This document shows, in pieces, positions 9,129-63,899 of a stretch of DNA of 64,000 nt (positions are counted from its first letter, which is position 1; each line of letters starts with the position of its first letter). The notes under the pieces are model-generated. The model saw only the letters and a program-made list of their open reading frames with translations. It ran no database searches and was not told the DNA's origin. The translations under genes were made by a program, and so were the position numbers. The stretch comes from an uncultured Bacilli bacterium. Lineage in GTDB: Bacteria; Bacillota_I; Bacilli_A; RF39; UBA660. The stretch lies in the NCBI GenBank assembly GCA_934098665.1, contig CAKOOO010000001.1, forward strand, positions 30,823-94,822, given 5' to 3'.

Positions 9129-9174
9129 AAACTCCTCTTTTTGCCCGTAAATACGGCATTGAGTTTTTTTATAT

Positions 9175-9299
9175 TAGATACATTTAAGAAAATACGAACG
9201 CCTATTTACGTACCTTACATCTTAATAATACACTATTTTTTATAAATTTTAAAGTCTAAATAACGATTTTACGCTATATAATTTTCTTAAATGTATCTA
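9175..9299 (-). promoter_or_regulatory. invertible promoter cassette 1 (promoter faces gene A1: ON)
   Basis: Perfect 19-bp inverted repeats: TAGATACATTTAAGAAAAT at 9175-9193 and its reverse complement at 9281-9299. The 87-bp core carries, on the minus strand, TTTAAA (9253-9248), 17 nt, then TATTAT (9230-9225). The homologous core is inverted at loci 3 and 4. Confidence 0.8.
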
Positions 9300-9330
9300 C
9301 TAAAGGAAAATACGAACAAGGTAAATACTG

Positions 9331-15134: not shown

Positions 15135-15689
15135 TTTATTCACTTCCTTTTTATTTAGTTTCATTTTAAAAAAATACTTTCTAATTACACTTTTTAACTA
15201 AATGATATTATATCATTGTTTTGTCTTTTAATAAAGTCTAATGCTTTAAAATATTTATCTTCGCATTCCGCAATTTCATCAAACTATTGAATTGCTAACT
15301 CAGTATCACAAAACTTCCGTTTCACCGATATTCTCTCCGAGCTACACCCATTACTTGTGTCTGTGGCTGTGCAGGAGTATCTTTAATAATGCACTATCTC
15401 TAACAGGAATGTACTTGATGAATGTGTATCAAATTTTCAAAAAATATTTCTTGCTCTTCTAAAAATAAAATAAAAAGGTGTAGAAAGTATTAACTTTCTC
15501 TCACCTGTTTCCACACTCAAATTTAACTTTTAAAGTCATAATTTCTATAGAATTATAATATAGAAATATTGCTACCTCTTATGAAAAATTAACTAATAAT
15601 GCGTTTATCATCATTCATCATCTTCATTACTAAAAATCTCGTTTGCTATAGCAATTACTGCCATTACATCCGTAAATCTAAAATGATTA

Positions 15690-16084: not shown

Positions 16085-17911
16085 CTAGTTATTAAATTTT
16101 CTTTTATAAAGTACTGCTCCAGCAAGTCCTAATAATGACACACCGGTAGTAATAATCCAAGTACTAACATTATCTAATGTATTAGGATTTTCCAAATTAT
16201 TACCACCAATAACATACGTACTAAAATGATCAGTTTCAAATACTAAATAATCACCTTCTATTTTTACATCATGTTTCTCTATCTCACCATTATCTTTAAC
16301 ATAATAAGCAGTTAAATCTAATTTTCTAAGTTCATCATTAAGAGGTACATAAACCTTAAATACACCATTTTCTAATTTAGAAATATTTTTATTTATTGAA
16401 TCAGAAAATAATTTTAAATCTACTACTAAACCATTATTAATATTTACTTTCTTTAAGAACTCTTTATATTCATCACTTTTAGCATCAATAACTACCGTAT
16501 TAATTTTAGAATCTAGTGGCACTTCTGAAGAATCAGTTTTAATTGAAATATCAGTTAAAGCATCTACTGTATTCATTACAGGTGTTCTCATTTTTGATGA
16601 ATCCTTAGCAATAAAATAATAATATTCTTCTTCACCAATAGTAACTTTATAGTATTCACCAAGTGTTTTATTAACATCAACTATATCTTTTAAAGATAAT
16701 CCTCCAAAATCATTAATATCAGCAATTTGTCCAGCATATTCTATTTTTACATTTGCTTTTGGAATATATTTATTAACTCTATCTAAAGCCGCTTTAATAT
16801 AAGCTTCTCTAGTATTTTCGGTTTCATCTGGTACATATAAAACGTTATTTTGTTTTACACCAGTAGTATCAACATAAGAATATATAACTCCATCAAATAA
16901 TAGATTTAAGAAACCAAAACAACCACTTGTAAATTGATCATCCCATCCAGCTCTTGTGTCTAACTTAGTTCCAATATTCATATATCCAATCTTATTTTGA
17001 AATTCAGAAGAATAATTAATTATTGAATTAACTGAATCAATCCACTCTCCAAAACTAGGAAAAGCATATTTATAATTAATTGTTTCTAAATCTTCCATCA
17101 AAAATAAATGGTCTTCTATATTTTGATTATCAACTACAAACGTCTTAGCATAACCATCTAATCTATTTTTTATTTTTAAATTAGGTGTTGCAAATTCAAA
17201 AGTAGTTTCGTAAGTCTTTTTTCTATAAGTTTTTACCTTATCAGAGATATTAATCATGCATTTATTTTTCTCATAGCATCCACCAAAAATACTATATTTA
17301 TCAGTATCATATTTACTCAAAGCTGAAGTAATAGCTGTATCAGAAAATATAGAATCATCTAGTGGATCAACACTAGCAACTTTTACTTTACCATCTTTAA
17401 GCATAGAATTATATATTGCATCCATTTCGGTAAAATCAAAATTATCGTTAAAGTTAAATCTTGTAATATCAAAATAAATATCCCTATCATCTAATGTATA
17501 TTTACTATACATATTTCTTAATGTCTTATTATCAGCATCTACTAGCTTGCTTTCCATCATACTGTTGCCATCTTCACCACTGATTGTTACACCAGCCATA
17601 AGCTCTGCACCAGTATAAGTTTTCTTAAAATTCTTAAAGTCTGATGTTAATGTGTAAGTATACTCTTCATCAGCATTAAGATTAAAACCAGTAATAACAA
17701 ATGAATACTTGCTGCCCTCTTGACCATTCATTGAATATTCAATATACTCACCAATATTAGTAACAGCACTGTATGAAGCACTACCTCCCATATCATTTTG
17801 CCCATTACACTTAATATCGCTGTAAGTTATATAAGATTCATCAGCAAATACTATTGTCGGCAAAAATAAAATAGCAACCAAAATCCCTAAAAAGTGTTTT
17901 ACCCTTTTCAT
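16085..17911 (-). CDS. secreted surface protein with C-terminal sorting-signal-like tail
   Basis: 608 aa with signal peptide MKRVKHFLGILVAILFLPTIVFA. The C-terminus is ...LENPNTLDNVSTWIITTGVSLLGLAGAVLYKRKFNN: motif, hydrophobic helix, basic tail. Confidence 0.7.
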   Translation of the reverse strand: MKRVKHFLGILVAILFLPTIVFADESYITYSDIKCNGQNDMGGSASYSAVTNIGEYIEYSMNGQEGSKYSFVITGFNLNADEEYTYTLTSDFKNFKKTYTGAELMAGVTISGEDGNSMMESKLVDADNKTLRNMYSKYTLDDRDIYFDITRFNFNDNFDFTEMDAIYNSMLKDGKVKVASVDPLDDSIFSDTAITSALSKYDTDKYSIFGGCYEKNKCMINISDKVKTYRKKTYETTFEFATPNLKIKNRLDGYAKTFVVDNQNIEDHLFLMEDLETINYKYAFPSFGEWIDSVNSIINYSSEFQNKIGYMNIGTKLDTRAGWDDQFTSGCFGFLNLLFDGVIYSYVDTTGVKQNNVLYVPDETENTREAYIKAALDRVNKYIPKANVKIEYAGQIADINDFGGLSLKDIVDVNKTLGEYYKVTIGEEEYYYFIAKDSSKMRTPVMNTVDALTDISIKTDSSEVPLDSKINTVVIDAKSDEYKEFLKKVNINNGLVVDLKLFSDSINKNISKLENGVFKVYVPLNDELRKLDLTAYYVKDNGEIEKHDVKIEGDYLVFETDHFSTYVIGGNNLENPNTLDNVSTWIITTGVSLLGLAGAVLYKRKFNN

Positions 17912-17959
17912 TTCATCCTCCTATAATAATAGGGTAACACATATTATTAATTTAATCAA

Positions 17960-18346
17960 TTACCAAATTAAAGAGCAGACGTCAAATCTGATTTTACTTA
18001 ATTGTGTTGCTCTTAATGAATTTACTCTATATCCAACTGATATTATGGCATCTAAATTATAAAATTCAATATTTCTCTTAACACTTCTATTTTCTTCTTT
18101 TTGAACTAATTCTATTTTGGAATAAGTTGAATCTTTATCTAACTCATTTTCATTATAGATATTAATTAAATGCTTTGCTATTGCCGGTTGTTCTACATTA
18201 AATAATTCCGCAATAGTTTTTTGAGTCATCCATAAAGTTTCATTTTCATATCTTACTTGTATGCCTTTGTCTTTTTCTTGAAGTTTGAATGTTATAAATT
18301 TTTCAGTGCTACTTCTAATTATTAAATCTTTTGCCATTGTTATCAT
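17960..18346 (-). pseudogene. RhuM-family gene fragment (N-terminal ~113 aa only)
   Basis: Matches the RhuM N-terminus (...WMTQKTIAELF...YNLDAIISVGYRVNSLRATQ). Homology is lost where QFRxWAT should follow, and a stop comes soon after. Confidence 0.6.
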
Positions 18347-18518
18347 CTTCTTTGTCTAAAATAATAGTTTCCCATAAATCACTCTTACATAATTTTTATT
18401 AAAAATTGTAAAAAGGATTTTAATTAAAAGTTTTATAAAATAAGGGGTTTTAAGAGAGTTTATATAAGTCGTTCTTTACCAGTTGATTAAACTTTTATTA
18501 AACCCCATACCATTATTT

Positions 18519-19373
18519 TCACTCATTTTTTTCACCTTCTTTATTGTTTCCTAATAATTTTATCTTTTCAGCATTATTAAGTATATCTAATTGATACTTT
18601 GCAATTTCATTTAATATTTCAAATCTCTCTTTCTTACTTTTTCCTTCCTTAATTAATTCAGCATTATGTGATTCTAAGTTTGATAATACTGTTAATTCAT
18701 TTATTGAAGCATAATCTCTAACATTAGAATTCTTTGCTAAACTAGGATTAAGTTCTCTCCATTTTTTAGCCGTTGTATTAAAGAGCACTACATTTAGAAT
18801 ATCAGCCTCTTCAGCATACTTTAACCATTCACTATCTTTATAATAGTTATTATCAGGCAATATATAGTTTTTAATTGCATCGGTATGAATTAAATAATTG
18901 TTTTTAGTTAATATTCTTTTAACATCCCATTCTCTATTTTCATTTTCTAATGTCTTTAGTCTTTCAAATTCTTTTATCAAATATAATTTAAAAACAGGAC
19001 TAATAGATGAAGCAAATTCAAAAGCAATATCTTTATGAGCATAAGTTCCGCCGTACTTACCACGTTTGGAATATATACCAATTGCATTTGTTTTTTCACA
19101 CCATTCAGTAACACTTAATGTAAATGTGTGAAGCCCTGCACTTTTTCTAAACCCGTCGAATTCGACGGAATTAAAATCTGGATTATAAATTGATTCCCAA
19201 GTTCCTAAAAATTCTAAAGTAATTCTATTTCTTAACCAGTTTCTTATAATGTCATCAGTTTTTGATTTTCCTTCTTTGTATTTACCAAAATCAGAAATGC
19301 AAATATAATCATTATCATTAATGCTTGTTATATTAACTTTTATATTTTGAACTTCAATTGTTTTATTTATCAT
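18519..19373 (-). CDS. KilA-N domain protein
   Basis: 284 aa with a KilA-N-like N-terminal half (...YICISDFGKYK...WLRNRITLEFLGTWE...GGTYAHKDIAFEFASSISP...). Confidence 0.7.
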   Translation of the reverse strand: MINKTIEVQNIKVNITSINDNDYICISDFGKYKEGKSKTDDIIRNWLRNRITLEFLGTWESIYNPDFNSVEFDGFRKSAGLHTFTLSVTEWCEKTNAIGIYSKRGKYGGTYAHKDIAFEFASSISPVFKLYLIKEFERLKTLENENREWDVKRILTKNNYLIHTDAIKNYILPDNNYYKDSEWLKYAEEADILNVVLFNTTAKKWRELNPSLAKNSNVRDYASINELTVLSNLESHNAELIKEGKSKKERFEILNEIAKYQLDILNNAEKIKLLGNNKEGEKNE

Positions 19374-24031: not shown

Positions 24032-25621
24032 TTAACTTTCTACTACATATGGATTATTCCACGTACCATCGCCTGATAAATTTACATCTTTTGATATTGA
24101 GATGACAGGGCGTATGGCATACCAAGTATTAGATGCATAAACACTTTGTGTGGCGTTATTAATATATACAGCAACTTCAATAAGACTATTTGTACTATTC
24201 CAGTAATACGATGTTCCTAACCAAAAACCAGCATTTGCATTTAGATACATATTTGATATAGCATTTTTAAAATCACTTCCAGCTAAAACTAATTCATCTG
24301 CTGTTAATAATCCAACCGGAATATTTAATTTTCCATTACCATTAGTCGTACTTACTGTAAATTTATCTTCACTATTAGGGCACAGCAAACTTGGACTTGC
24401 TGACACATATAATCTTTGATATGCATCAAAATAATAAGAATATGTAGGGTTAGACATCCAAGTTGTTCTTGTAGTCCTATCATTACAAAATATTTGTTCA
24501 GCAATAGCATCATTTAATTGATTTAAATTAGTATAATTATTGTACCAGTTTTCAATATACAATTTTATGTTACTATTATTTTGACTACCATGTTGTTCAC
24601 CAAGCGTATACATAAATCCGCCATATTCTGTGTTTGAAGCCGTATTATTAAATGGATTTATGCCAATATAATTATTATATGTTGTTAAAACAACCTTTGT
24701 ACTTTCAGTTGGTTCAGTAATTCCTGAGTAAATTAATCTTATTGAACCATCTCCATTTATTCTGACAATACGCCAATATATATCTTTCCCTAAAATTCCA
24801 GTTTGAGAACAACTACCACTAGATGGCTTTGTAGAAGAAAGAGAAGTAGCATCCATACACGCATAAGCATCACTTGTATATTTTCCAAATTTTAACCAGT
24901 TATTATCTACGGCTCCTCTAAAATAGTAAGATGTTCCTAAGTCATCTTCGATTGCATACATTCCTTCATTTTCAGTTGCTGCAATTGTAAAATCTGGTGT
25001 ATCTTTTGCTTCAATTGCATCTTTTCCACCATTATTATTTAAAATTAATAACACTGCTGATGACATAAAACTTATTTCATCAGATACTTTAACATTACCT
25101 GTGGCATCCTTTACCCACAAATATGGTGTATCACTTGTTATTGATGTAGATAGTGTATATGGTGTTGTTGGTATATTAAGCCACTCTTCAGGTTCAATAT
25201 CACTACTACTTGAAAGTCCATAACTTTTTAACATTACATTATCATTAAGTGTTACTGTTAAAATATCATTTTCTACTTTTAAGTCATCACTAATTGTTGG
25301 TGCTATGCTATCTTCATCAAAATATAATGTACATCTATCACTTCCTATAAAACTAAAACCCACTACACCACTAACATTATCATAACTTGAAATTTCCCCA
25401 TTATTTTCACAAAAACTTTTTTCTTTATTAAGTAAATAACTTCCTTTAGGAATATTTTTTGAATTTGTATAACTACTTGAATTATTTTCTTTTACATATA
25501 TTGCATAACTTTTATTTACTAACTTATTTTTATTTAAATTTATCTTTTTATTATATATAAAAATAATACTTAAAACTCCTATCAATAAAAATACGAACAA
25601 CACTATTTTTCCCTTTTTCAT
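24032..25621 (-). CDS. membrane-anchored variable surface protein, paralogue B1 (529 aa)
   Basis: Signal-anchor MKKGKIVLFVFLLIGVLSIIF. N-terminal ~185 aa homologous to the 42194 gene. C-terminal FWLGTSYYWNS...AIRPVISI...GDGTWNNPYVV module. RBS AAGAGGAG. Confidence 0.85.
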   Translation of the reverse strand: MKKGKIVLFVFLLIGVLSIIFIYNKKINLNKNKLVNKSYAIYVKENNSSSYTNSKNIPKGSYLLNKEKSFCENNGEISSYDNVSGVVGFSFIGSDRCTLYFDEDSIAPTISDDLKVENDILTVTLNDNVMLKSYGLSSSSDIEPEEWLNIPTTPYTLSTSITSDTPYLWVKDATGNVKVSDEISFMSSAVLLILNNNGGKDAIEAKDTPDFTIAATENEGMYAIEDDLGTSYYFRGAVDNNWLKFGKYTSDAYACMDATSLSSTKPSSGSCSQTGILGKDIYWRIVRINGDGSIRLIYSGITEPTESTKVVLTTYNNYIGINPFNNTASNTEYGGFMYTLGEQHGSQNNSNIKLYIENWYNNYTNLNQLNDAIAEQIFCNDRTTRTTWMSNPTYSYYFDAYQRLYVSASPSLLCPNSEDKFTVSTTNGNGKLNIPVGLLTADELVLAGSDFKNAISNMYLNANAGFWLGTSYYWNSTNSLIEVAVYINNATQSVYASNTWYAIRPVISISKDVNLSGDGTWNNPYVVES

Positions 25622-25667
25622 ACACTCCTCTTTTTTCCCGTAAATACGCCATACTTTTTTCTTATAT

Positions 25668-25793
25668 TAGATACTTTTAAGAAAATTGTACATCGATTTT
25701 ACGTATCTTACTATTAAATTATACATTAATTTTCATGATTTTTAAACCCTTTTTAACGATTTTTTCTTGTTCGTTTTTTCTTAAAAGTATCTA
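25668..25793 (-). promoter_or_regulatory. invertible promoter cassette 2 (promoter faces gene B1: ON)
   Basis: Perfect 18-bp inverted repeats: TAGATACTTTTAAGAAAA at 25668-25685 and its reverse complement at 25776-25793. On the minus strand the core carries TTTAAA (25746-25741), 17 nt, then TATAAT (25723-25718). Confidence 0.8.
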
Positions 25794-25824
25794 CTTTAGG
25801 AAAATACGAACAAGATAATTACTG

Positions 25825-25852
25825 GGTTTATTTGATATGAACCTATTTTTTT
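25825..25852 (+). terminator. weak plus-strand hairpin + T-run just outside cassette 2
   Basis: GGTTTA-TTTGATA-TGAACC (one G-U pair) followed by TATTTTTTT. Confidence 0.4.
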
Positions 25853-26105
25853 AATTTGCATAAAAAAGGCCCCAAAAAAGGAGCACTTAAAAATATTTAT
25901 AAAAATTTTAATTATATTTGTCATATAGTATTAAAGGTCACTGATAAAAGTAATAAATCAATTAAGAAAATTATTCAAATTAATTTAAACTGCTTTGATA
26001 GATATGGCGATGATAAATTTTTATATAAAACAGTGTTATGTGAAGTTTCAAGTCATAAACAGTATTTCGATTTAATCGAAATAGATGATATAAGCCTTTT
26101 AACCT

Positions 26106-29100
26106 CTATAAAGTTCTTTCTAGACCTTCATTTGTTTCAAGCATATTTAAATAATTATTTACATTTGAATTTAGCATACCTAAATTTTGGGGATATTCAG
26201 CACTAATGGTCTCAAGTAATTTTTTAGTTTCTGAAACATTTCTATCAAGAATAGCCTTAAATAAACTCATAACATTATTTGTAAGTTCGTTTGCTTTTTG
26301 CGCTGATGTAATGCCCATATTTATTGCAACTTCACTACCTATTAAAGGAAGTAAATCATCTCTTGCCATTTCAAGAGCATTTATTGTAACAAAATGATTT
26401 ATAATAATTTGATTTATTTTAAATAGTTCTTGATTTAAAAGCGTTCTTGTAACATTAAATCTATTATTTTTTTCTTTCATTATCTGTTGCATCGTATTTA
26501 CCTCTAAAAAAGAAGCATAAGTAAGTGCATCTTCTGGATTAATTTTACTTAGCTTTTCATTTAAAATATTTAAAATTTCATTTGATTTTTTTGAATATTC
26601 ATTATTTTTATGAAAATAAATTGTGATATATTTTCTTATTAAATCAAATGTTAATAACTCTTTTGAAAGAATTTTTATATTATCATTAATAGCATTTTTT
26701 AAAGTACTTATATCTGTAATACTTTTTTCTTCTTCATAAGGTTCCACTAGAAAAGACCAAAAACTTTTTTTAGGTTTATTTTTTTTAGATAGTAAATCAT
26801 TTATTGTTTGAATAGACAAACTAGCACTATTTATAGATAATGCCTTTCTTTCTTCACTCGAAAGGACTTCATACTCAGCATTTAAACTTTTACCAAAATT
26901 CATAACAGAATTTAAACTTTGAATATCAATATTCTCAACTTCTAAATTGTTTAAGTTTTCAATAGTTTCTGAAAGTGATGGAACATATCTTTTAGTATTT
27001 GTAAGTTCATATAAAAGTGCTTTTTTATTATTTATTAAATCATCAAAATAATTACTTTCTATTAGATTTATTAATATATTTTGTAAACTATTTTTATATT
27101 TATGGCCATTAACTTCCGTAATAAAATAATTTTCTAAGGATACAAAATTTTCTAAATTAATATCATTATAAGCAAATTCACTATTAAAAATGCCAAATTT
27201 TTCTATAATACTTTCTTTAGTTATACCATATTTTTCTAAAGATTTTTGGTAAAAATAAATTGCATCATTATCAAAATTCATAGATATAAATTCATATAAC
27301 ATATTTACTTTTATATTAGTTAAATTTATTTTGCATAGTTTTTCAAGTAATTGTAAAGTAGCATTATCATTTTCTATACATAACATTTTTTTATAATCAT
27401 CATATTTTTTCTTATTTGATACCCTATTAATTTCTTTATCCATATTTTCTTTAATTTCATCTATAGTTTTACCCATAAATAATTTTTTTAAAATTAGACT
27501 ATTATCTTTTTCTTCTTCAAAAAGTTTATATAAAGTTTTTAATATGCTTTTTTCTAAATATGAACCAAAAACTTTTTCAACCTCTATAGGATAATCAACA
27601 TTATTAAATTTTTGTTTTAAAGTTGTATTTACTCTTCCATCAGAAAGATTAATTTCTAAATAATTATCACATGAAAATATAAAACTAACATTATAAATAT
27701 CCTTGAGTGTTTTTTTAAGACTATTTTCATCTAAACCAGTATTTTTCAAAACATCAGATAAAGCGTTTACTATATTTGATTTAAATGAGTATAAAGTTAG
27801 CATTATTGAAAATACTTTTAAATCAGTTTTTGATAAAACGTTATTTACAACTTCACAAGATTCTAATTTTTCATAAATTTCATATGATGTATTAAAAAAC
27901 TCTTTATAAGTTTTATCTTTATCTTTGTAAATTCTTTCGTAAGATTCTTCATTTTCTTTCATTTCTAAAAGTTTATAATAATTTATAACATCACTATCTA
28001 GATTATTAGTTTTATTTTTTGTAAATGTATTAAATAAATTCATTATAAAATCACTACTTGTCATAAATTTTAATTTGTCTTTAGCATCTTTATAACCTAT
28101 TAATATTTCATTTAAATATGTTTGATAGTCTATATATTGAGAGTCACTTAATACAATACTATATTTAGATAAAATCATTTCAAGAGTAATTCCATTTTCT
28201 AAAAAATATTTTGATAGTTTGCCATTATTTTGATAATCAAATATGATAAGTGTTAAATACATATTATCATTAGGATAAAGCCTTTTATTATGAGTATTAA
28301 CGCTATTATACATAGCACATATCAATTGATAATCACCTTTTTCTTTTGGAACAGTATCAGCATAAAATTCTGTAATAATTTCCTCTTTTGAAGGAGTGAG
28401 CAAAATACTTTTAGCTTTTTCTTTAGTTAGCCCTGCATTTAAAAATATTTTTTCAACCTCCACTGAGTTAGTTACATTTCTATTAAATAATGCTAAAAAT
28501 AATTCATTTATATTTTTATATTTTAAATATTTTTCAAAATAATATTTTACTAGTGTATAATCTACCTTTTCATTTTCTATAAAAGTACTATATTTTTCTT
28601 TATTTACAATATCAAATTCATAAGTGGAAAGTTTATTTTGAATTTCTTTACAAGAACTAGTTAAAAGTATAGACATTAAAATTGTAATACTTGATAAGTC
28701 ATTATAGTCACTAAAGTTATCTTTTGCTTTTTGAAATATTATAGATGCATTTTCTACGACTTTAATAACATCAATACTTGCCTTTTCATATAAATCATTT
28801 CTGATTTCACTTATATAGTTCATTTCCATATTATTAATGTTATTATCATAAGGCAATATTTTTGCTACACTTACTTGAGGTATAAAGCAATATTCAATAT
28901 TATTCATTTTATAGCATTGCATTACAACCCTTTTATAAATTTTTAAAGGAGATAATGTTATATAGTCAATTTCATTATTTAAAAAGCAAAAATAAGAATT
29001 TAAATTATTAAACAATTCTTCATAATTAGTATTTGGATTGTATGAGGACAATTTGATATTCGCAAGTTTGTGTTCCTCGATGACACCACTATAATAATTA

Positions 29101-29351
29101 GTTTTTTCAAAATAAACATCATTTTTTAAAATATCTTTTGAGTGTGAACTATAAGGCGTAGTATTAAAAATTTTAATCATTAATACTGCTAACTTGCTTT
29201 CTTCAATGGAAAAATATATATTTTTTCTGCAACCACAAACTAAAATATTTCTTAAATACAAATCTTCATATTTTGAATAATTTTTCAAAACTGTAAATAC
29301 AAAATCTTTTGTTTCTTTTGGAACAAGTTCCATAAATTTTTGATAATTCAT
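26106..29351 (-). CDS. large uncharacterised cytoplasmic protein; C-terminal ~350 aa TelA/YaaN-like
   Basis: About 1080 aa with no TM segments or signal peptide. Start placed at MNYQKF (29351), 5 nt after GGGGT. The C-terminal helical region resembles the toxic-anion-resistance TelA family; this is from memory and not verified. Confidence 0.6.
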   Translation of the reverse strand: MNYQKFMELVPKETKDFVFTVLKNYSKYEDLYLRNILVCGCRKNIYFSIEESKLAVLMIKIFNTTPYSSHSKDILKNDVYFEKTNYYSGVIEEHKLANIKLSSYNPNTNYEELFNNLNSYFCFLNNEIDYITLSPLKIYKRVVMQCYKMNNIEYCFIPQVSVAKILPYDNNINNMEMNYISEIRNDLYEKASIDVIKVVENASIIFQKAKDNFSDYNDLSSITILMSILLTSSCKEIQNKLSTYEFDIVNKEKYSTFIENEKVDYTLVKYYFEKYLKYKNINELFLALFNRNVTNSVEVEKIFLNAGLTKEKAKSILLTPSKEEIITEFYADTVPKEKGDYQLICAMYNSVNTHNKRLYPNDNMYLTLIIFDYQNNGKLSKYFLENGITLEMILSKYSIVLSDSQYIDYQTYLNEILIGYKDAKDKLKFMTSSDFIMNLFNTFTKNKTNNLDSDVINYYKLLEMKENEESYERIYKDKDKTYKEFFNTSYEIYEKLESCEVVNNVLSKTDLKVFSIMLTLYSFKSNIVNALSDVLKNTGLDENSLKKTLKDIYNVSFIFSCDNYLEINLSDGRVNTTLKQKFNNVDYPIEVEKVFGSYLEKSILKTLYKLFEEEKDNSLILKKLFMGKTIDEIKENMDKEINRVSNKKKYDDYKKMLCIENDNATLQLLEKLCKINLTNIKVNMLYEFISMNFDNDAIYFYQKSLEKYGITKESIIEKFGIFNSEFAYNDINLENFVSLENYFITEVNGHKYKNSLQNILINLIESNYFDDLINNKKALLYELTNTKRYVPSLSETIENLNNLEVENIDIQSLNSVMNFGKSLNAEYEVLSSEERKALSINSASLSIQTINDLLSKKNKPKKSFWSFLVEPYEEEKSITDISTLKNAINDNIKILSKELLTFDLIRKYITIYFHKNNEYSKKSNEILNILNEKLSKINPEDALTYASFLEVNTMQQIMKEKNNRFNVTRTLLNQELFKINQIIINHFVTINALEMARDDLLPLIGSEVAINMGITSAQKANELTNNVMSLFKAILDRNVSETKKLLETISAEYPQNLGMLNSNVNNYLNMLETNEGLERTL

Positions 29352-29384
29352 AATTACCCCCATAAAGTGAAATTATTGTACCAT

Positions 29385-30205: not shown

Positions 30206-32689
30206 TTACTCTATTACAAAAGGATTTGTATATGAGCCATCACCTGATGATATTTCAGTTCCAGGTTTGATGGAAACGGCAGAGCGCACACCCCCCTCGC
30301 GGCCCACGTTTTCGTTCCAGCTACTGGAGCTCACTCCCAAGACGGCGGAGGTGTTAATGCCGAATCTGTAGGGAGAACTAAGAAAAACATTTTGGCCATT
30401 ATCAAAGTAATGACCATTTGAATTTGAATATCCCGCTAAACTTAATTCTGGTGCTGTTAATAATCCTATAGGATATTTTAACCTTGCTTTTGGATTATTT
30501 ACACTAAATCTATCTGTTTCATTTGCACATACTAAACTTTTATTCCTTAGACTATAATTTTTAAATTGTAATTCAGTTGTTGTACTTCCTCCATTTGGAT
30601 TCCAACCATTTTGTGATTCATTATCCATTGACCTATCATTACAAAATACTGTATCTTCTAGCCTATCATCATATTTATCTTTTATATTTTCTTCATACCA
30701 ACTATCTATATATGCTTTTATTGTACTATCTTTTGTATTTACATCATCGTTATATAACATTTCATTTAAAGCATCATTTACTGATTTTCCTCCAGTTAAG
30801 GTTATGTAATATAACGTTCCATTAGAATCATAATATACATAATAAACGGAGGTACAGCTATTACCATTTGTTAAACATGTATAATGATGAGTATTTACAT
30901 TTGTACTACTTGTACTCCATGTATCTGAATTTATTGTTACTGTATCAGTTAATGTATATGTTCCATTATATGTAAATGATGAACCAAATACATAATTACT
31001 TCCATTATCTGTTCCATCTACATCTCCTTTTGACAATGAGTAATAATAAATATAATTTGATTTATATCCTACTATATAATATACATTCGTACATGTTTCT
31101 GTTATAGAACTACTACTACAAGTATATTTTCCCACTAATGAACTTATATTTGACCATGTTACATTTAATGTTGTTGCTGTTGCACTATCAAGTGTATATT
31201 TACTCATACTACTATCATATATTACTGCATCGGCATATGCTTTTGTTCCATCGAAATATTCATTATTTACTATTGCTTTACTTGAAGGTGTATATACTTT
31301 GTTTTCATTATACATGTATCCCACATATGCTGGTGAATTATAATTACTATTAAATAGAGTTGTTCCTATTTGTGAATTATCTCCTATATTATTACATGAT
31401 TTTATTATACTATTAACTCTACCAAAACTAAATATTACATTATTTCTATCTCCTATCGTCCATGAATATTTTCTTGTATATATAATTTTTATTACATTTG
31501 ATGTAGTTAAGTTTTTAAAAACAATTTGTCCATTATCTGTTCCTGTAAATTTTCCTTGACTTACGTTATCTTTAAATATTTCTACATTTATACCATATTC
31601 ATAATCATTCATTGATAAATCATAATTTATTACATAATCTCCATTTGATGGTGCAGTAAATGATATTGTTGAACTATTTGTTCCAGTATTTGTACTTGTC
31701 CACATTTTATTTGTTTCATCAAATGTATATGGATATGTAGCATCATTACTTAAATTTACATATTCTGACTGACTTAATGACTCTGAAGTATAAAAATCTT
31801 TCTGTACACCATTATATACTATTTTAACTCCACCAGTATCTGTAGTTCTTACTATCTTCCAGCAGTAGTTTGCAAATAAAACATTATTATTTTCTACATT
31901 GCCATCAAAATAATATATATTATTTGCATATGTTGTTGTATCGCCATAATCTGCTCCATTATATAGTTTTACATATTCATCATTTGCATTATATCTTTTA
32001 GCAATTGCATTATATAAAGTTGGTTCTAATTCTTCAACTGTACAACTATTATTTTCTACATATATTGTTCCTGTAAACGATTTATCTACTAGTTGTGACT
32101 GGTCTAAATTTAAATTATAGTATCTTCCTGTTATATTTATATCTTGTATAGTACTTGTTCCACTACTTTTAATGGTGGCTCCTTTTACAAGTATTTTTTT
32201 TGCTCCTACTGTAGATGTTTTTGGTGTCCATGAGCTATCATAAGCAAAATTAGTTTCATTTACATAACTATTTGTTCCACTTGGGCTTTCTACTTGCATC
32301 GTAATTTCTTTTGTAGCTCCACTTGTTACATTTACTGTGTTTCCATATATTTCACTATCAAGATTATATTCATATACTACATCATATGTACATGTTGTTG
32401 TTACGTTTGGTGCTCCAGTTAAATTAACAGTAAGCGTTGCTGTATTTTCTGCGGCTAGTCCAGTATTTCCCTTAAACATACCACTTTTAGGTACTATTAC
32501 ATTTAAATTTGCACTTGTGGCAATAAAAGAGGTATTACCTATATCATTTGCATAAATATTTACCGCTACTTTATTTTCTAAATTTACTGTAAACATCCCA
32601 AAATATGCAAATGATGCCCCAATTAATATTAGAAGTAATACTAAACATGCTATAGCACTTTTTATAGTTATTTTCTTTTTATTTTTCAT
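30206..32689 (-). CDS. variable surface protein, paralogue A2 (827 aa) with a different N-terminal module
   Basis: Residues ~224-827 are closely similar to A1 residues ~104-717. The N-terminal ~220 aa are unrelated to A1 and begin MKNKKKITIKSAIACLVLLLILIGASFAYFG, resembling a TasA/camelysin SipW-type signal peptide. Confidence 0.85.
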   Translation of the reverse strand: MKNKKKITIKSAIACLVLLLILIGASFAYFGMFTVNLENKVAVNIYANDIGNTSFIATSANLNVIVPKSGMFKGNTGLAAENTATLTVNLTGAPNVTTTCTYDVVYEYNLDSEIYGNTVNVTSGATKEITMQVESPSGTNSYVNETNFAYDSSWTPKTSTVGAKKILVKGATIKSSGTSTIQDINITGRYYNLNLDQSQLVDKSFTGTIYVENNSCTVEELEPTLYNAIAKRYNANDEYVKLYNGADYGDTTTYANNIYYFDGNVENNNVLFANYCWKIVRTTDTGGVKIVYNGVQKDFYTSESLSQSEYVNLSNDATYPYTFDETNKMWTSTNTGTNSSTISFTAPSNGDYVINYDLSMNDYEYGINVEIFKDNVSQGKFTGTDNGQIVFKNLTTSNVIKIIYTRKYSWTIGDRNNVIFSFGRVNSIIKSCNNIGDNSQIGTTLFNSNYNSPAYVGYMYNENKVYTPSSKAIVNNEYFDGTKAYADAVIYDSSMSKYTLDSATATTLNVTWSNISSLVGKYTCSSSSITETCTNVYYIVGYKSNYIYYYSLSKGDVDGTDNGSNYVFGSSFTYNGTYTLTDTVTINSDTWSTSSTNVNTHHYTCLTNGNSCTSVYYVYYDSNGTLYYITLTGGKSVNDALNEMLYNDDVNTKDSTIKAYIDSWYEENIKDKYDDRLEDTVFCNDRSMDNESQNGWNPNGGSTTTELQFKNYSLRNKSLVCANETDRFSVNNPKARLKYPIGLLTAPELSLAGYSNSNGHYFDNGQNVFLSSPYRFGINTSAVLGVSSSSWNENVGREGGVRSAVSIKPGTEISSGDGSYTNPFVIE
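30272..30373 (-). other. GC-rich NNC-codon patch (candidate DGR variable region) in A2
   Basis: Hand count gives about 62% G+C, and 19 of 34 codons end in C. Encodes PYRFGINTSAVLGVSSSSWNENVGREGGVRSAVS. It sits at the same position as the A1 patch, but the sequence differs and is 3 codons shorter. Confidence 0.55.
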
Positions 32690-32811
32690 AAAAACTTCTT
32701 TCCTTTCTTTAGTATGTTATTTATTATTTAAATAAATACGAACAATTAAAATTTTTTCAAAATTTAAATCTTAATTTTTTCCCGTAAGTACGCACGTCTT
32801 TTTTCTTATAT

Positions 32812-32936
32812 TAGGTAGATTTAAGAAAAATACATAACGTAATTTCGTTATTTAGACTTTAAAAATTACAAAAAATGATGTATTATTTAATAGTAAGGTA
32901 CGTAAAATCGAAGTAAGATTTTCTTAAATCTACCTA
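32812..32936 (+). promoter_or_regulatory. invertible promoter cassette 3 (promoter faces away from gene A2: OFF)
   Basis: Perfect 18-bp inverted repeats: TAGGTAGATTTAAGAAAA at 32812-32829 and its reverse complement at 32919-32936. The core carries, on the plus strand, TTTAAA (32858-32863), 17 nt, then TATTAT (32881-32886). The core is the reverse complement of the locus 1 core. Confidence 0.8.
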
Positions 32937-33035
32937 CTTTAGGAAAATACGAACAAGATAAACACTTAAGAAAATGAAAATTAATAAATTTTTTAAATTT
33001 ACATAAAAAAATTAAAGTAAATTACTCTAATTTTC

Positions 33036-33587
33036 TTATTTATTAACTCCATATTTTTTAGTAATAGGATCTAAAAATAATTCATTTTTTAAGGGATATA
33101 TTGTTAAAAGTAAATAAAAAGCAAATATAATAAATAAAATAATGCAACCTAAATAATTTAAAACAAATATTTCTTTAACATTATTTATTATATAATAATA
33201 AAAGTACTGGGAAACAAATACCGCTATATAAAAAATTAAAATATCTATAACTAAATAACTTTTTTTAGTAAACATTTTATAACCATAAAAAAGTATTGGA
33301 ATAAGTAAAATAACTATAATAATTGAGATAGATTTTGCAAAAAAATAGTTTATAGGTAAATTTATGCCTTCGAAAATTCCTAATAAAAATGAAGCAGAAA
33401 GTGCCATCTTAATATGTTCCCAAGTACTTTCATTTACTGCTGAAAAAATAGATGAAATTTTATTTTTATTAAATAACTTATATGTAAAATGAAAAAATGT
33501 ACCTAATATACTAACAAATAAAAAACCAATAATTAAATTCATAATATATGATATGAAAAAAAGTGCTACTTTATTCAACAGTAACAC
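33036..33587 (-). CDS. small polytopic membrane protein
   Basis: 183 aa with about 5 TM helices and an NESTWEHIKM motif. Overlaps the glmS stop, so the true start may be an internal Met. Confidence 0.55.
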   Translation of the reverse strand: MLLLNKVALFFISYIMNLIIGFLFVSILGTFFHFTYKLFNKNKISSIFSAVNESTWEHIKMALSASFLLGIFEGINLPINYFFAKSISIIIVILLIPILFYGYKMFTKKSYLVIDILIFYIAVFVSQYFYYYIINNVKEIFVLNYLGCIILFIIFAFYLLLTIYPLKNELFLDPITKKYGVNK

Positions 33588-35322
33588 TTTTTGCTAAATT
33601 TCTTGGTTTATCTATATCTTCACCTTTTAATAAGGCAACTTTATATGCAAGTAGTTGAAGACTTGCAACAACAAGTATAGGGTCTATAATACTATTTATA
33701 TGAGGTACTTTTATTTTATCATCATAAAAATCTCCCTGTATATCTAAACTTGTTATAAATAGTGAATATGCTCCCCTTGCATGAACTTCTTTAACATTAC
33801 TTATTGTTTTTAAAGCCAAATTTTCATCTGTAATTATACTCATTACTGGAGTATCATTTTCAATAAGGGAAATTGTACCATGTTTAAGTTCTCCAGAGGC
33901 AAATGCAGATGAGTTTATATAGCTTATTTCCTTTAATTTAAGGCTTCCTTCTTCGCAAAGGCCATAATCTATTCCCCTACCAATAAAGAAAGCATCTTTT
34001 TTATTATATATTTTTTTTGCGTATTTTTGATAGTCTATGTCAAATACAGTATCAAGTGCTTCATTTACTTTATAAAAATCATTTAAATCATTTACACCTC
34101 CCATTTTAAGGGCAATAAGTGTAAGAAGTAAATATTGAGCAGTAAATGCTTTAGTCGTTGCTACCGCTATTTCTGTTCCAGCTTTAATATATAATACTTT
34201 ACCTGCTTCTCTAGCTATCGAAGAACCTACTACATTTACAATAGCAAGAGTATCTATACCATCATTTTTAGTAATTCTAAGGGCCTCTAAAGTATCAGCA
34301 GTTTCACCAGATTGAGAAATAAATACTACTAAAGTATTCTTATCATAAAAATGTTTTTGATATCTAAATTCACTTGCTAAAAATACTTCACACTTAATAC
34401 TTGCATATTCTTCGAATACTTTTTTAGCAATATCTGCAGTATAACTTGCACTACCACAACCTACAAAATAAATATTTTTATATTTTTTAAACTCAGGCAT
34501 ATTTTCATTAAAATGACCATCAGTAATATAATGATTTAAAATATTATTAATAACTATAGGTTCTTCATGAATTTCCTTAAGCATAAAATGCGGATAATCA
34601 CCTTTCATTACATCATTACTTGTACCTTCAAAAGTTAAAAGTTTTTTCTTTAATAAATTTAAATTACTATCATAAATATATTCTTTATCAGAAATTTTAA
34701 CTATTTCATCATTTTCAAGTAAATAAAATTTATTTGTATATTTAAGTGCCGCTGTCATATCTGATACTAAAAAATATTCATTATTCTTTTTTGCAAGTAT
34801 TAAAGGAACATTTTTTCTAGCACCATATAAAGTATCAGGTTCATCTTCATTAATAATTGCAAGAGCATAACTTCCTTTTATATCGTTTTTAAGTCTTGCT
34901 AAAGTTTTAAGCATATCATGATTTTCATTATATAAATGATTTATATATCCACATAATATTTCTGTATCTGTTTCACTTTTTAAATTAACATTAATTATTT
35001 CCTTTAAATCTTTATAATTTTCAATAATACCATTATGAACAAGAGTTATTTTACCTTGTTTATGAGGATGTGCATTAATATCTGTTACTCCCCCATGAGT
35101 TGCCCATCTTGTATGAGCTATGCCAATGTTTCCATAGTCATCACTAGTAACTAAATTTTCAAGATTTTTAACCCTTCCTATAGTTTTTTTAATAGTTATT
35201 TTACCCCCATTTATATAAGCAAGTCCTGCTGAATCATAGCCTCTATATTCAAGTGATTTTAAGCCATTTAATAAAACAGGAATACTATTTTGGTTTCCTT
35301 TGTAACCAACAATTCCACACAT
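33571..35322 (-). CDS. glmS: glutamine--fructose-6-phosphate aminotransferase
   Basis: 583 aa with the N-terminal nucleophile MCGIVGY, two SIS domains and a C-terminal ...AKSVTVE. Preceded by the glmS ribozyme. Confidence 0.97.
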   Translation of the reverse strand: MCGIVGYKGNQNSIPVLLNGLKSLEYRGYDSAGLAYINGGKITIKKTIGRVKNLENLVTSDDYGNIGIAHTRWATHGGVTDINAHPHKQGKITLVHNGIIENYKDLKEIINVNLKSETDTEILCGYINHLYNENHDMLKTLARLKNDIKGSYALAIINEDEPDTLYGARKNVPLILAKKNNEYFLVSDMTAALKYTNKFYLLENDEIVKISDKEYIYDSNLNLLKKKLLTFEGTSNDVMKGDYPHFMLKEIHEEPIVINNILNHYITDGHFNENMPEFKKYKNIYFVGCGSASYTADIAKKVFEEYASIKCEVFLASEFRYQKHFYDKNTLVVFISQSGETADTLEALRITKNDGIDTLAIVNVVGSSIAREAGKVLYIKAGTEIAVATTKAFTAQYLLLTLIALKMGGVNDLNDFYKVNEALDTVFDIDYQKYAKKIYNKKDAFFIGRGIDYGLCEEGSLKLKEISYINSSAFASGELKHGTISLIENDTPVMSIITDENLALKTISNVKEVHARGAYSLFITSLDIQGDFYDDKIKVPHINSIIDPILVVASLQLLAYKVALLKGEDIDKPRNLAKSVTVE

Positions 35323-35347
35323 AAAAAATTTCCTTTCTTGTTTTATT

Positions 35348-35478
35348 AAATACCTCTTTGTTATAATTTATATTTTATTTTTTCAAAGTATTTTACGAAG
35401 TAAAACTTCTCCGCTTACACATCCGCTGAAAAATCGACAATGTAAGTCCTCGTCACCTATAACCGGCCATGCGCTATT
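35348..35478 (-). ncRNA. glmS ribozyme: glmS ribozyme/riboswitch
   Basis: Minus strand reads AGCGCAUGGCCGG...GUGACGAGGACUUACAUUGUCGAUUUUUCAGCGGAUGUGUAAGC.... This matches the conserved glmS ribozyme core (AGCGCC..., GACGAGG, AUCGAAUUUUCGGCGGAUGCC). It sits in the 5' UTR of glmS. Confidence 0.8.
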
Positions 35479-35519
35479 ATAAAAAAATACTCCTTTCGCT
35501 TTCTATAATTTCTAAAAAG

Positions 35520-35643: not shown

Positions 35644-36615
35644 ATGGAATTGAAGCAACCCATAAATGATTTATATAAACATTGTCACTATGCTAAACAT
35701 ATTAATTATAATAGTTTAAATGAACAAATTGAAAAAGAAAACTTTTATTTAAATAATAATTTTATTTATGAAGAAATGATAAACAGTTTTTTAGATAATA
35801 ATGAGCAAGTTCATAATAAAAAAACTAAATATAATGAACATTTAAATGAAGATGATTTATTTACTTTAACTTATGATTTTTTTAAAAATTTAGATAGTGA
35901 TATTTTTAAAACATTTACTATTTTATTTAATAATAAAGAAAATAACATAAGTTTTATAAAAGATAAAATTAATTCTAGATATATTGGCTACACTAAAAAG
36001 TATCCAAATAATTTTATTAAAATTGAAATGATTAAAAATAATAATATAACGGATTTATATACCCTTGTACATGAATATGGTCATGCAATAAATCATTTAA
36101 ATAATGATTTTAACTATACTTTATATAGAAAACCTTTTTCAGAAATTGAAAGTACATTTTTAGAAATTTTATTATCAAATTATTTAGAAAAAAATGGATT
36201 TAATCAAAAAGATATTTTATATTATAATAATTTTAAGTTTGATAGCATATATAAAGATGCCCTTTTTATGAAAGCTAAATATTTATTTTTAGATTTTCAA
36301 AATTTAAATCATTTAAATTGTCATAATAAAAATTATTATAAAGAAATTAAGCATATGGTAAATATTTCAAAAAAAGATATTAAATATTTATATAGTATAA
36401 ATTCTTATGAACTTCTTCCTTATGTAGTAAGTCCTTTATATGCTTTTGAACTTTATGATATGTATTTAAAATCAAAAGAAAAAGCTATGAGTGTATATAA
36501 AAAAATAATTTCTTTTGATAGCCCATCATCAATAGATATAATAAAAAATTTAGAAAGTTTTTATTTATACCCTAATGAAACTGATACATGTATAAGATAT
36601 TTAAAAAGGAAGTAA
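35644..36615 (+). CDS. HExxH zinc metallopeptidase-like protein (half-size, M3/PepF-like motif region)
   Basis: 323 aa with HEYGHAINH followed about 25 residues later by SEIESTFLE, an HExxH...E arrangement as in M3 oligoendopeptidases. No signal peptide. Confidence 0.5.
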   Translation: MELKQPINDLYKHCHYAKHINYNSLNEQIEKENFYLNNNFIYEEMINSFLDNNEQVHNKKTKYNEHLNEDDLFTLTYDFFKNLDSDIFKTFTILFNNKENNISFIKDKINSRYIGYTKKYPNNFIKIEMIKNNNITDLYTLVHEYGHAINHLNNDFNYTLYRKPFSEIESTFLEILLSNYLEKNGFNQKDILYYNNFKFDSIYKDALFMKAKYLFLDFQNLNHLNCHNKNYYKEIKHMVNISKKDIKYLYSINSYELLPYVVSPLYAFELYDMYLKSKEKAMSVYKKIISFDSPSSIDIIKNLESFYLYPNETDTCIRYLKRK

Positions 36616-36616
36616 T

Positions 36617-37522
36617 ATGAAAGTAAATGTTAATGAATATAAAAATAAATTAAGAAAAAAAATATATATTGATAATAAAAATATTAGTTTTAATCCAAAT
36701 ATAACTAGGGTTATAGAAAACTTTGCTTGTGTAAATAAGGCATCTGACTGGAAAGAAAATTCAGTAGTAAGTTTAACTAAAAATGACATATTTGATCTTA
36801 CTTATGATTTTTATAAAAGTTTTTTAGATAAGAATCTTTTTAATATATTTGAGTGTTATTTTAAAAACAGAAATGAAAATATTTATTTTTTAAAAAAATC
36901 AAAATATAATCTCGAAGGATATACAGATGAAAATAACATAATTAAAATAATTAACAATAATAAATATAATTATATTATCCTTGATACACTTATTCATGAA
37001 ATTGGTCATGCTATAGCAAATATTTATAACGATAAAAATTGTAATTTAGATTATAAGCTAGCTTATAGTGAAATAGAAAGTATTTTTCCAGAATTTTTAT
37101 CAACTATGTTTATTAATGAAAAAGAATATTCACAAACTATTTATAATTCATATTTATCATTATGTAACTTAAATAACATTTTAAATTATAAACTTGAGGT
37201 ATATTACTATATGAAAAATAATAACATAGATATAAATAATAAAGATTTATTTTTTAAACTTAATAATGATTTAGGTTGTGACTATGAATGTCTAGCTCAA
37301 ACTTATGAAACATCATTTAATTATTATCTTCCCTATACTATTGGTTCAGCTTATGCATTTTTTCTAATTAATATTTATATTGATGATAAAGACTATGCTT
37401 TAAAACTTTATAAAGATATACTAAATATGCATTTTTATAATGAAAGATATTATGAAAAATATTTAAGTAATAATGGTATATATCCAAACTATTCTTGTAA
37501 ACTTTTTAGGGTAAAAAAATAA
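36617..37522 (+). CDS. HExxH zinc metallopeptidase-like protein, tandem paralogue
   Basis: 301 aa with HEIGHAIAN...SEIESIFPE. Colinear with the preceding gene and starts 1 nt after its stop. Confidence 0.5.
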   Translation: MKVNVNEYKNKLRKKIYIDNKNISFNPNITRVIENFACVNKASDWKENSVVSLTKNDIFDLTYDFYKSFLDKNLFNIFECYFKNRNENIYFLKKSKYNLEGYTDENNIIKIINNNKYNYIILDTLIHEIGHAIANIYNDKNCNLDYKLAYSEIESIFPEFLSTMFINEKEYSQTIYNSYLSLCNLNNILNYKLEVYYYMKNNNIDINNKDLFFKLNNDLGCDYECLAQTYETSFNYYLPYTIGSAYAFFLINIYIDDKDYALKLYKDILNMHFYNERYYEKYLSNNGIYPNYSCKLFRVKK

Positions 37523-43642: not shown

Positions 43643-43688
43643 ACACTCCTCTTTTTGCCAGTAAATACGCACGTCTATTTTCTCATAT

Positions 43689-43813
43689 TAGGTAGATTTA
43701 AGAAAATTACATAACGTAATTTCGTTAAAAAGGGTTTAAAAATTATAAAAATTAATGTATAATTTAATAGTAAGGTACGTAAATACGAGATAGAATTTTC
43801 TTAAATCTACCTA
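43689..43813 (+). promoter_or_regulatory. invertible promoter cassette 4 (promoter faces away from gene B2: OFF)
   Basis: Perfect 20-bp inverted repeats: TAGGTAGATTTAAGAAAATT at 43689-43708 and its reverse complement at 43794-43813. The core carries, on the plus strand, TTTAAA (43735-43740), 17 nt, then TATAAT (43758-43763). The core is the reverse complement of the locus 2 core. Confidence 0.8.
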
Positions 43814-43844
43814 CTTTAGGAAAATACGAACAAAGTAGATACTG

Positions 43845-58320: not shown

Positions 58321-58397
58321 GCGCCCATAGCTCAACTGGATAGAGCGTTTGACTACGGATCAAAAGGTTGGGGGTTCGAATCCCTTTGGGCGTACCA
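58321..58397 (+). tRNA. trnR: tRNA-Arg (anticodon ACG)
   Basis: Folded by hand: acceptor GCGCCCA/TGGGCGT, D-arm GCTC/GAGC, anticodon stem TTTGA/TCAAA with loop CTACGGA, T-loop TTCGAAT, encoded CCA. Confidence 0.9.
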
Positions 58398-58425
58398 ATT
58401 TTATAATGTACACGCAAAAATTTAT

Positions 58426-58453
58426 TTGCAAAATGGAAATTATATGATATAAT
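58426..58453 (+). promoter_or_regulatory. candidate promoter of tRNA-Pro
   Basis: TTGCAA, 16 nt, then TATAAT. Lies 11 nt upstream of the tRNA 5' end. Confidence 0.4.
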
Positions 58454-58464
58454 AAGTTTGTTTT

Positions 58465-58541
58465 CGAGAAGTAGCACAGTTTGGTAGTGCACTACGCTTG
58501 GGACGTAGGGGTCGCAGGTTCAAATCCTGTCTTCTCGACCA
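58465..58541 (+). tRNA. trnP: tRNA-Pro (anticodon UGG)
   Basis: Folded by hand: acceptor CGAGAAG/CTTCTCG, D-arm GCAC/GTGC, anticodon stem CTACG/CGTAG with loop CTTGGGA (G37), T-loop TTCAAAT, encoded CCA. Confidence 0.9.
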
Positions 58542-58576: not shown

Positions 58577-59077
58577 TTTTTCTTTTTGAACCATTTTTAC
58601 ATCACTAATATATACATATGAATTTTTATCAATATCATAAACTATTTTATATAGATTTTTTAAATTTTTTTTATTTGTATTAATTATTAACAATTGTCTT
58701 TCTATTTTGTCATAATTATTATTTAAATCTAAAATAGAAAATTTATAATTATTTTCATATAAAGTATTAAATAAAATACTATTATTTTTTTCTGTAATTA
58801 CGTTGATATTAACTGATGTTTTTATAAAATTATTTGATATATATGAACCAATTAAATTTCCAGTGGAATATCCAAGTGCATAACTTATTGGTATCCATAT
58901 AGAATTTAAATTTACATTTAAAGCTTGCCTTGCCACCATAAACCAAATTAAAACTTCAAAAAAAGAAATTACAGTTGAAAATATAGTTTTTCCCTTTAAT
59001 GTATAAAAAGTTCTAATAGTATTTAATGAAACATCAAGTATTCTTGCAAAATATATTTGTATGCATAAACTAATCAT
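58574..59077 (-). CDS. UPF0316 (YebE-like) membrane protein
   Basis: 167 aa. ...[20 protein letters not shown]...[10 protein letters not shown]... matches the UPF0316/DUF2179 family pattern as I recall it. Confidence 0.65.
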
Positions 59078-60891: not shown

Positions 60892-60919
60892 ATCAACACC
60901 ACCGCTATCATTATACAAC

Positions 60920-60974
60920 AAAAAATAAAAAATGTGAAACTTTTTTAATATTTTTCTTATTAAAAGTTTCACAC
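60920..60974 (-). terminator. terminator hairpin, copy B (upstream of the fic-like gene)
   Basis: 12-bp stem TGTGAAACTTTT/AAAAGTTTCACA with the same loop as copy A, followed on the minus strand by a T-run. Confidence 0.55.
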
Positions 60975-60977
60975 TAA

Positions 60978-62541: not shown

Positions 62542-62652
62542 AATTACCCTCCTATTTGGATTTTTTAATAGATAATTATATTTTATCATAAATATTAATA
62601 TTTTTTTACTTTAGATACAAAAAAAACTGAGATTTTTTCCTACTACAATGGT

Positions 62653-63891: not shown

Positions 63892-63899
63892 CTTACACC

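Follow-up and report, generated by a model that had tools for sequence, protein, structure and literature searches.

B1 is preceded by a short segment of DNA enclosed by inverted repeats, which raises two questions: is this segment an invertible promoter that switches B1 on and off, and what kind of recombinase would flip it? We examined the window, that is, the whole 64,000-nucleotide stretch of DNA in which B1 lies, together with related loci from metagenomes. The window has a GC content of about 25%, and it comes from a human-gut lineage of very low GC (about 25%) that has not been cultured and is represented by metagenomes only.

Four homologous cassettes with composite sites

A scan of the whole window for inverted repeats placed four homologous cassettes at the top of the list (Table 1). 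Perfect 16-mer inverted seeds at a spacing of 30-200 bp numbered 15 in the window, all of them inside the four cassettes, compared with a mean of 0.08 in 100 first-order Markov simulations. In cassette 2, upstream of B1, the sequence TAGATACTTTTAAGAAAA faces its exact reverse complement across a 90-bp core. The initial annotation had described these perfect 18-bp repeats and their core, and both were reproduced in full when coordinates and sequence were re-derived. The repeat extends imperfectly to 29 nt on each side (90% complementary), the extent of the two putative recombination sites. It had also been noted that CTTGTTCGTTTTTT inside the distal repeat is the inverted partner of AAAATACGAACAAG outside it, and that the recombination site might extend beyond the 18-bp repeat or be a composite. 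We recovered this pair as two 24-nt arms (25762-25785 and 25795-25818; 88% complementary), and it proved to be one case of conserved outer motifs; the distal flank motif GAAAATACGAACAAG, for example, pairs in cassette 2 with the inner CTTGTTCGTTTT (25767-25779). The distal flank of the cassettes also carries CTTGTTCGTATTTTC, part of which was imposed by the search pattern used.

The suggestion of a composite site was borne out. At all eight sites of the window, 11-bp arms surround a 7-bp asymmetric centre (11-7-11) and further conserved motifs lie outside the arms. The outer arms are degenerate, and the perfect repeat corresponds to the centre plus the inner arm. The two sites of a cassette share one centre; it reads TAGATAC in the first pair of cassettes (1 and 2) and TAGGTAG in the second (3 and 4). 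The same geometry was kept in 14 of 14 distinct cassettes from several clades, with centres 118-119 bp apart (119 bp in cassette 2) despite diverged cores. As a separate observation, the 18-bp repeats of cassettes 3 and 4 are identical to each other.

The core of cassette 2 had been proposed to carry a promoter on its minus strand aimed at the ATG of B1. A promoter scan found this predicted sigma-70-type promoter with 10 of 12 consensus matches, and its position is conserved across cassettes. Indeed, the -35, the -10 and a TG before the -10 hold their positions in 14 cassettes that come from several related organisms and have otherwise diverged; the core also conserves tACGTAAA..CG, located downstream of the -10. 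Consensus promoter matches are no commoner here than in shuffled AT-rich sequence, so the case for promoter function comes from conservation and context. With regard to context, the scan gave no promoter-like site facing B1 in the OFF allele of cassette 2, and the intrinsic terminator of the upstream gene is predicted to insulate B1 from read-through transcription. In the OFF state, transcription that runs outward may be terminated at the hairpin followed by T7 on the plus strand. A search of Rfam returned no known RNA element at the cassette 2 switch.

Global alignment showed that cores 1 and 2 are colinear, as are cores 3 and 4, and that the first pair is reverse-complementary to the second. 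The initial annotation had placed the B2 cassette in the opposite state to that of B1, on the basis of a comparison made by hand. Core 2 matched the reverse complement of core 4 at 72/90 positions (score 52.5), whereas the forward, colinear arrangement that would speak against opposite states reached only 54/104 (score -1.5); the proposal therefore stands. The promoter of cassette 1 is aimed at the 717-aa gene, that of cassette 3 is aimed away from the 827-aa gene, and that of cassette 4, a mirror image of the one in cassette 2, is aimed away from B2. Promoter consensus and conservation are the grounds for reading cassette 2 as ON and cassette 4 as OFF.

Table 1. Features of the B1 locus (cassette 2) and of the other three cassettes; positions are those of the window
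Feature	Position	Strand	Description
B1 (529 aa)	24032..25621	-	ATG at 25621; N-terminal transmembrane helix, then beta-rich domains
Ribosome-binding site of B1	25625..25630	-	GAGGAG, read from sequence
Leader motif	25637..25649	-	GCGTATTTACGGG (coding strand); conserved; inverted partner of ACGTAAAATCG in core
Gene-proximal recombination site (putative)	25657..25685		29-bp quasi-palindrome, TTTTCTTATAT / TAGATAC / TTTTAAGAAAA, 11-7-11
Gene-proximal perfect inverted repeat	25668..25685		18 bp; 7-bp centre TAGATAC plus 11-bp inner arm TTTTAAGAAAA
Invertible core	25686..25775		90 bp; exact reverse complement in metagenome contig L002
Predicted promoter of cassette 2	25746-25718	-	TTTAAA-17-TATAAT
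Gene-distal perfect inverted repeat	25776..25793		18 bp
Gene-distal recombination site (putative)	25776..25804		TTTTCTTAAAA / GTATCTA / CTTTAGGAAAA, 11-7-11
Conserved distal flank motif	25800..25814		GAAAATACGAACAAG; found at 4/4 cassettes of the window
Weak hairpin, then T7	25823..25852	+	faces away from the switch; conserved at cassettes 1, 2 and 4
Intrinsic terminator of upstream gene (26106-29363)	25869..25884	-	65 bp upstream of the distal site
Cassette 1	9175-9299		perfect repeats; full sites 9164..9310; repeat 19 bp, core 87 bp
717-aa gene of cassette 1	6975-9128	-	
Cassette 2	25668-25793		perfect repeats; repeat 18 bp, core 90 bp
Cassette 3	32812-32936		perfect repeats; full sites 32801..32947; repeat 18 bp, core 89 bp
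827-aa gene of cassette 3	30206-32689	-	
Cassette 4	43689-43813		perfect repeats; full sites 43678..43824; repeat 20 bp, core 85 bp
Predicted promoter of cassette 4	43735-43763	+	
B2, gene of cassette 4	42194-43642	-	

Cassettes 2 and 3 are inverted in independent metagenomes

Independent gut-metagenome contigs were retrieved by exact protein sequence look-up. One contig carrying B1 (L001; ERZ28613791) is identical to the window. In another (L002; ERZ27287290), flanks and repeats are 100% identical to the window and the 90-bp core is exactly reverse-complemented. Cassette 2 is thus invertible, as had been proposed. Similarly, cassette 3 was found in the window orientation in two contigs (L024, L025) and with an inverted core in three (L026, L027, L028). 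Inversion polymorphism of cassettes 2 and 3 therefore occurs in nature. Cassettes 1 and 4 were seen, at three places and one place respectively, in the window orientation only. Two related species showed both orientations at loci of their own, the first in L019 and L042 vs L052, and the second in L038, L039, L009 and L010 vs L003-8, L041, L045 and L058. The orientation of an assembly is the consensus of a possibly mixed population, and many contigs (L009-L012, L048, L049, L051, L053, L056) break off within the switch, which is what a mixture of the two orientations in one population should produce. Because both orientations are present in independent assemblies, we regard the cassette as a real on/off phase-variation switch.

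Some of the related loci depart from the common form. At ~3100-3240 of L054, a single 11-7-11 site (TTTTCTTAAAT/TATATAC/ATTTAAGAAAA) is all that lies between the distal flank and the leader: the promoter core is missing, and the downstream ORF is short. The locus resembles a scar left by a deletion, or a copy that is locked OFF and decaying. In another set of loci (L031, L033, L037, L050, L057; L029, L059; and the L030-type loci) the inner arms have diverged, leaving a perfect repeat of at most 13-14 bp. All cassettes of this kind were seen in the OFF orientation only, and they may be slow or locked switches. A divergently oriented unit lies just upstream of the switch in relatives (L064, 3440-3720; L019, 4880-4953; and L063, in two copies). 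It comprises a TTGCAA-17-TATAAT promoter, a GC-richer, possibly structured leader and a 49-aa hydrophobic ORF, and is absent from the window.

A probable promoter switch, presumably flipped in trans

We consider it highly probable that cassette 2 is an invertible-promoter (inverton) phase-variation switch, in which a recombinase acting in trans flips the only promoter of B1. According to this model, a recombinase encoded elsewhere would recombine the two inverted 29-bp sites, with their centres 119 bp apart, and so flip the 90-bp segment that carries the sole B1 promoter. In the state seen in the window, this promoter would read through the proximal site and a leader of ~90 nt into B1 (ON). 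After a flip it would point away from the gene, and B1 should be silent because a terminator closes the upstream gene. We infer that transcription of B1 depends on orientation. The same recombinase would presumably serve all four cassettes of the window and their counterparts in related genomes, and each cell would then display one combination of mosaic membrane-anchored family members.

Two other explanations of the cassette itself were weighed against promoter inversion. Opposite orientations at the same locus between 100% identical flanks (at two loci of the window and in two further species), breakpoints exactly at the repeats, and the occurrence of the element upstream of one gene family only all speak against a static palindromic element, MITE-like or REP-like, that was inserted either way. 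The orientations could also be artefacts, since short-read assemblers can mis-orient DNA between inverted repeats, but at 18 bp the repeats fall below the length of typical assembly k-mers (k141 contigs) and were therefore read through during assembly. Even with the single orientation of cassettes 1 and 4 counted in its favour, we regard a static or artefactual origin as extremely improbable. The other explanation accepts that the segment inverts and proposes that it acts after initiation, through leader structure, termination or mRNA stability, with the promoter outside the core; the cwpV and flgB switches of Clostridioides difficile are an example of post-initiation control. In the predicted ON mRNA, GCGTATTTACGGG and ACGTAAAATCG form a long imperfect hairpin with the proximal site at its tip (-15.1 kcal/mol, z = -2.7), which would suit such a role, but this hairpin follows automatically because the recombination site is palindromic, and it leaves the ribosome-binding site unpaired. 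Conserved CGTAAATACG-like motifs flanking both sides of each site, and the lack of statistical enrichment of consensus promoter matches, would also be in keeping with control after initiation. However, the -35, spacer, TG and -10 are fixed in position while the rest of the core diverges, and no gene-facing promoter-like site was found between the terminator and the switch. We judge control after initiation to be improbable and retain inversion of the promoter as the preferred reading.

Which type of enzyme flips the promoter can be approached from the geometry of the sites. Inverted arms flank a 7-bp asymmetric centre that is identical in both partner sites, and these are features of the core-type sites of tyrosine recombinases (R-H-R-Y catalytic domain), in which the overlap region spans 6-8 bp. 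Tyrosine recombinases such as lambda Int fit an odd spacer, whereas serine recombinases cut with a 2-bp stagger at the centre. With an odd spacer of 7 bp, each site has its dyad axis on a base pair. A 7-bp overlap cut by a tyrosine recombinase would agree with this, and a symmetric 2-bp serine cut would not. On this basis, we lean somewhat towards a tyrosine recombinase with a 7-bp overlap. Catalysis by a serine recombinase, either a small invertase resembling Mpi or Hin or a large serine recombinase, appears unlikely, although several observations would fit it. Large serine recombinases have extended sites, to which the conserved motifs found 20-30 bp from the centre bear a resemblance, and 9 kb upstream of one gene under a related switch there is a gene for such an enzyme (Resolvase + Recombinase + Zn_ribbon_recom; L060/L061 1-1156(-), cut by the locus edge). 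In addition, Mpi of Bacteroides fragilis, a global promoter invertase, is described as a trans-acting serine recombinase (PMC2268961, PMC11602134). Against this, 11-bp arms, a 7-bp spacer and a dyad on a base pair recur in every clade and are incompatible with a central 2-bp stagger, and large serine recombinase genes are absent near all the other loci. Moreover, a 119-bp loop is too short for an enhancer-dependent invertasome of the Hin type.

Searches for a gene encoding the favoured tyrosine recombinase, or any other, covered the window and its relatives. Pfam analysis of 40 of the 57 window ORFs of at least 80 aa gave no recombinase, and returned housekeeping, peptidase-like and defence-like genes only. 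Motif regexes and phmmer, run on ORFs of at least 100-140 aa from the window and ~440 kb of related loci, also found no recombinase, the phmmer probes being approximate XerD, Cre and Hin sequences. Related loci contained no recombinase gene within about 5 kb of a switch, and clustering of 272 ORFs from these loci produced no candidate. The only recombination gene in the later loci besides the large serine recombinase encodes an IS transposase. Two ~300-aa ORFs at 35644-37522 were considered as recombinases and rejected, as they carry HExxH motifs. Presumably, one recombinase encoded elsewhere acts in trans on all cassettes.

Cassettes 1 and 2, and likewise cassettes 3 and 4, have identical 7-bp centres and therefore one enzyme could also catalyse recombination between loci, so that inversions or deletions of 10-16 kb look chemically possible. 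The strict 118-119-bp spacing suggests, speculatively, a tight phased synapse, possibly with a DNA-bending factor at the outer motifs. A bolder reading, which we think doubtful, is that the cassettes belong to a genome-wide regulon under an undescribed recombinase and site family, specialised for an unusually tight, strictly kept 118-119-bp synapse, with 11-7-11 sites, outer CGTAAATACG-like accessory motifs on all four arms and possible inter-locus exchange. If true, promoters, N-terminal modules and chromosome segments would be reshuffled in a Mollicutes-like gut lineage.

Known switches, the B1 family and the genomic setting

Literature searches found no description of this switch system. 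The closest analogues of the switch set are the mpl switches of Mycoplasma penetrans and the Mpi regulon of B. fragilis; it belongs to neither of these systems. As outlined in PMC2268961, the mpl genes (P35 family) of M. penetrans are many paralogous surface-protein genes at several loci, each with its own invertible promoter; they switch ON and OFF independently (Horino et al. 2003, summarised in PMC2268961), and candidate tyrosine recombinases lie near the mpl clusters. Here, too, the regulated genes are paralogues, and every one of them is served by an invertible promoter of its own. The mpl invertible element is reportedly about 135 bp long with short inverted repeats, and the element here is also very short. 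In contrast to the mpl products, the proteins here have an N-terminal transmembrane anchor and are not lipoproteins, and they show no significant similarity to M. penetrans families (MpPF26, E = 0.14); they are not of the P35 family. Further differences are that the host here has cell-wall and spore-coat genes and that no recombinase lies near its loci.

In B. fragilis, according to the accounts in PMC2268961 and PMC11602134, dispersed promoters with related inverted repeats, which serve capsular-polysaccharide and surface-protein genes, are inverted in trans by Mpi. Both cases involve a gut commensal with multiple dispersed invertible promoters and a recombinase that, here presumably, acts in trans. 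The Mpi repeats follow a consensus different from the sites here. In addition, single protein genes and not polysaccharide operons are controlled here and, unlike for the serine recombinase Mpi, the 11-7-11 sites argue for a tyrosine recombinase.

Other systems share fewer features. The fimS element of Escherichia coli (314 bp, 9-bp repeats) is a single locus with adjacent genes for the tyrosine recombinases FimB and FimE; its half-sites flank a short identical core, and it exerts ON/OFF control of a surface structure. The cassettes resemble it in having an invertible promoter, half-sites around a short identical core and a connection with the cell surface, but they measure 119 bp from centre to centre, are multi-copy and have no adjacent recombinase. 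In C. difficile, one trans-acting tyrosine recombinase, RecV, serves several short switches upstream of surface-protein genes; most of these act after initiation, by termination in the leader, and the repeats of one locus do not resemble those of another. The low-GC Gram-positive gut host and the short switches before surface-protein genes are in common, whereas here a conserved promoter lies inside the core and one site consensus is found throughout. The Hin/Gin/Cin/Pin serine invertases use 26-bp sites with a central 2-bp crossover and a recombinational enhancer, and the invertase gene lies inside or beside the segment. By comparison, the spacer here is an odd 7 bp, the searched ORFs contained none with a resolvase domain, and the 90-bp core is too short to hold a gene. 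The mechanism proposed for B1 is thus a compact example of a known strategy and introduces no new principle. What is added is direct in vivo evidence of inversion, a definition of the sites and the finding that such switches precede the genes of a large family of membrane-anchored proteins that lacks annotation.

All four switch-controlled proteins of the window have an N-terminal transmembrane helix followed by beta-rich domains, and in the family proteins no lipobox Cys follows the N-terminal hydrophobic segment. Pfam and PDB sequence searches gave no match for these proteins. The AlphaFold model of B1 was poor (pLDDT 61), and Foldseek with this model gave no match at E <= 0.001, returning weak Ig/FN3-like arrays only. 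More than 3700 homologues of the B1 family were found, almost all from gut metagenomes. Each of the four family members of the window carries a cassette and, conversely, of the metagenome switches whose downstream DNA could be read, 26 of 26 stand before a family member. Promoter switches that flip in nature, and that each precede a member of this family, mark it as a group of variable surface proteins on which host, immune or phage selection probably acts.

The family is mosaic. The part common to B1 and B2 is limited to the N-terminal ~198 aa, at 70% identity. The proteins of cassettes 1 and 3 (717 aa and 827 aa) share 611 C-terminal aa (77% identity), and the 717-aa protein shares the N-terminal module with B1 and B2. 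At the DNA level, loci 1, 2 and 4 have in common a module of 570-630 bp that takes in the 5' coding region and leader as well as the switch and its upstream flank. The initial annotation had called B1 and B2 the most closely related pair. Since their sharing is confined to the N-terminal ~198 aa and the 5' module, this is true of the 5' modules only and not overall, given the longer and closer match between the 717-aa and 827-aa proteins.

Species-representative genomes were also searched by DNA pattern; the strict form gave no matches and the relaxed form one contig. This contig belongs to 'Mycoplasma sp. CAG:472' (MAG), the closest public genome and the only species-representative genome with the switch. 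It encodes an 851-aa family member with an OFF switch at a site syntenic with cassette 4, and the radical-SAM (UPF0004) gene beside that switch is 78% identical to that of the window. Beyond this genome, the source samples were Hadza and further human-gut metagenomes. The host lineage carries a Mollicutes-relative label at NCBI. The site consensus and the fixed 118-119-bp spacing make switch states measurable in existing gut metagenomes, and provide a handle for seeking the responsible recombinase.

The chromosomal context of the cassettes includes housekeeping genes (infB, nusA, topA, recD2, and glmS together with its ribozyme), as well as a CotZ-like gene and genes for the cell wall. The glmS ribozyme/riboswitch (Rfam RF00234, 60.5 bits) lies at 35339-35486(-), upstream of glmS (33571-35322). 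A match to the Rfam 'pemK RNA' at 15306-15386(-), upstream of genes for a GTPase and RNase HII, scored 35.0 bits against a gathering threshold of 34.8. The tandem paralogous ORFs with HExxH motifs at 35644-37522(+) encode 323 and 301 aa without a Pfam match; they lie in the lowest-GC stretch of the window (about 20%) and are among its few plus-strand genes. Two tRNA genes (58321-58538(+)) and a sigma-factor gene (59074-59850) are followed by Fic, Abi_2 and HopA1-like genes (59959-63903), and the region is possibly an island for defence or accessory functions; the Abi_2 protein of the window has no record in the public collection. At 16085-19373, KilA-N and RhuM-like genes adjoin a 608-aa ORF without a family match, and this region may be the remnant of a prophage or island.
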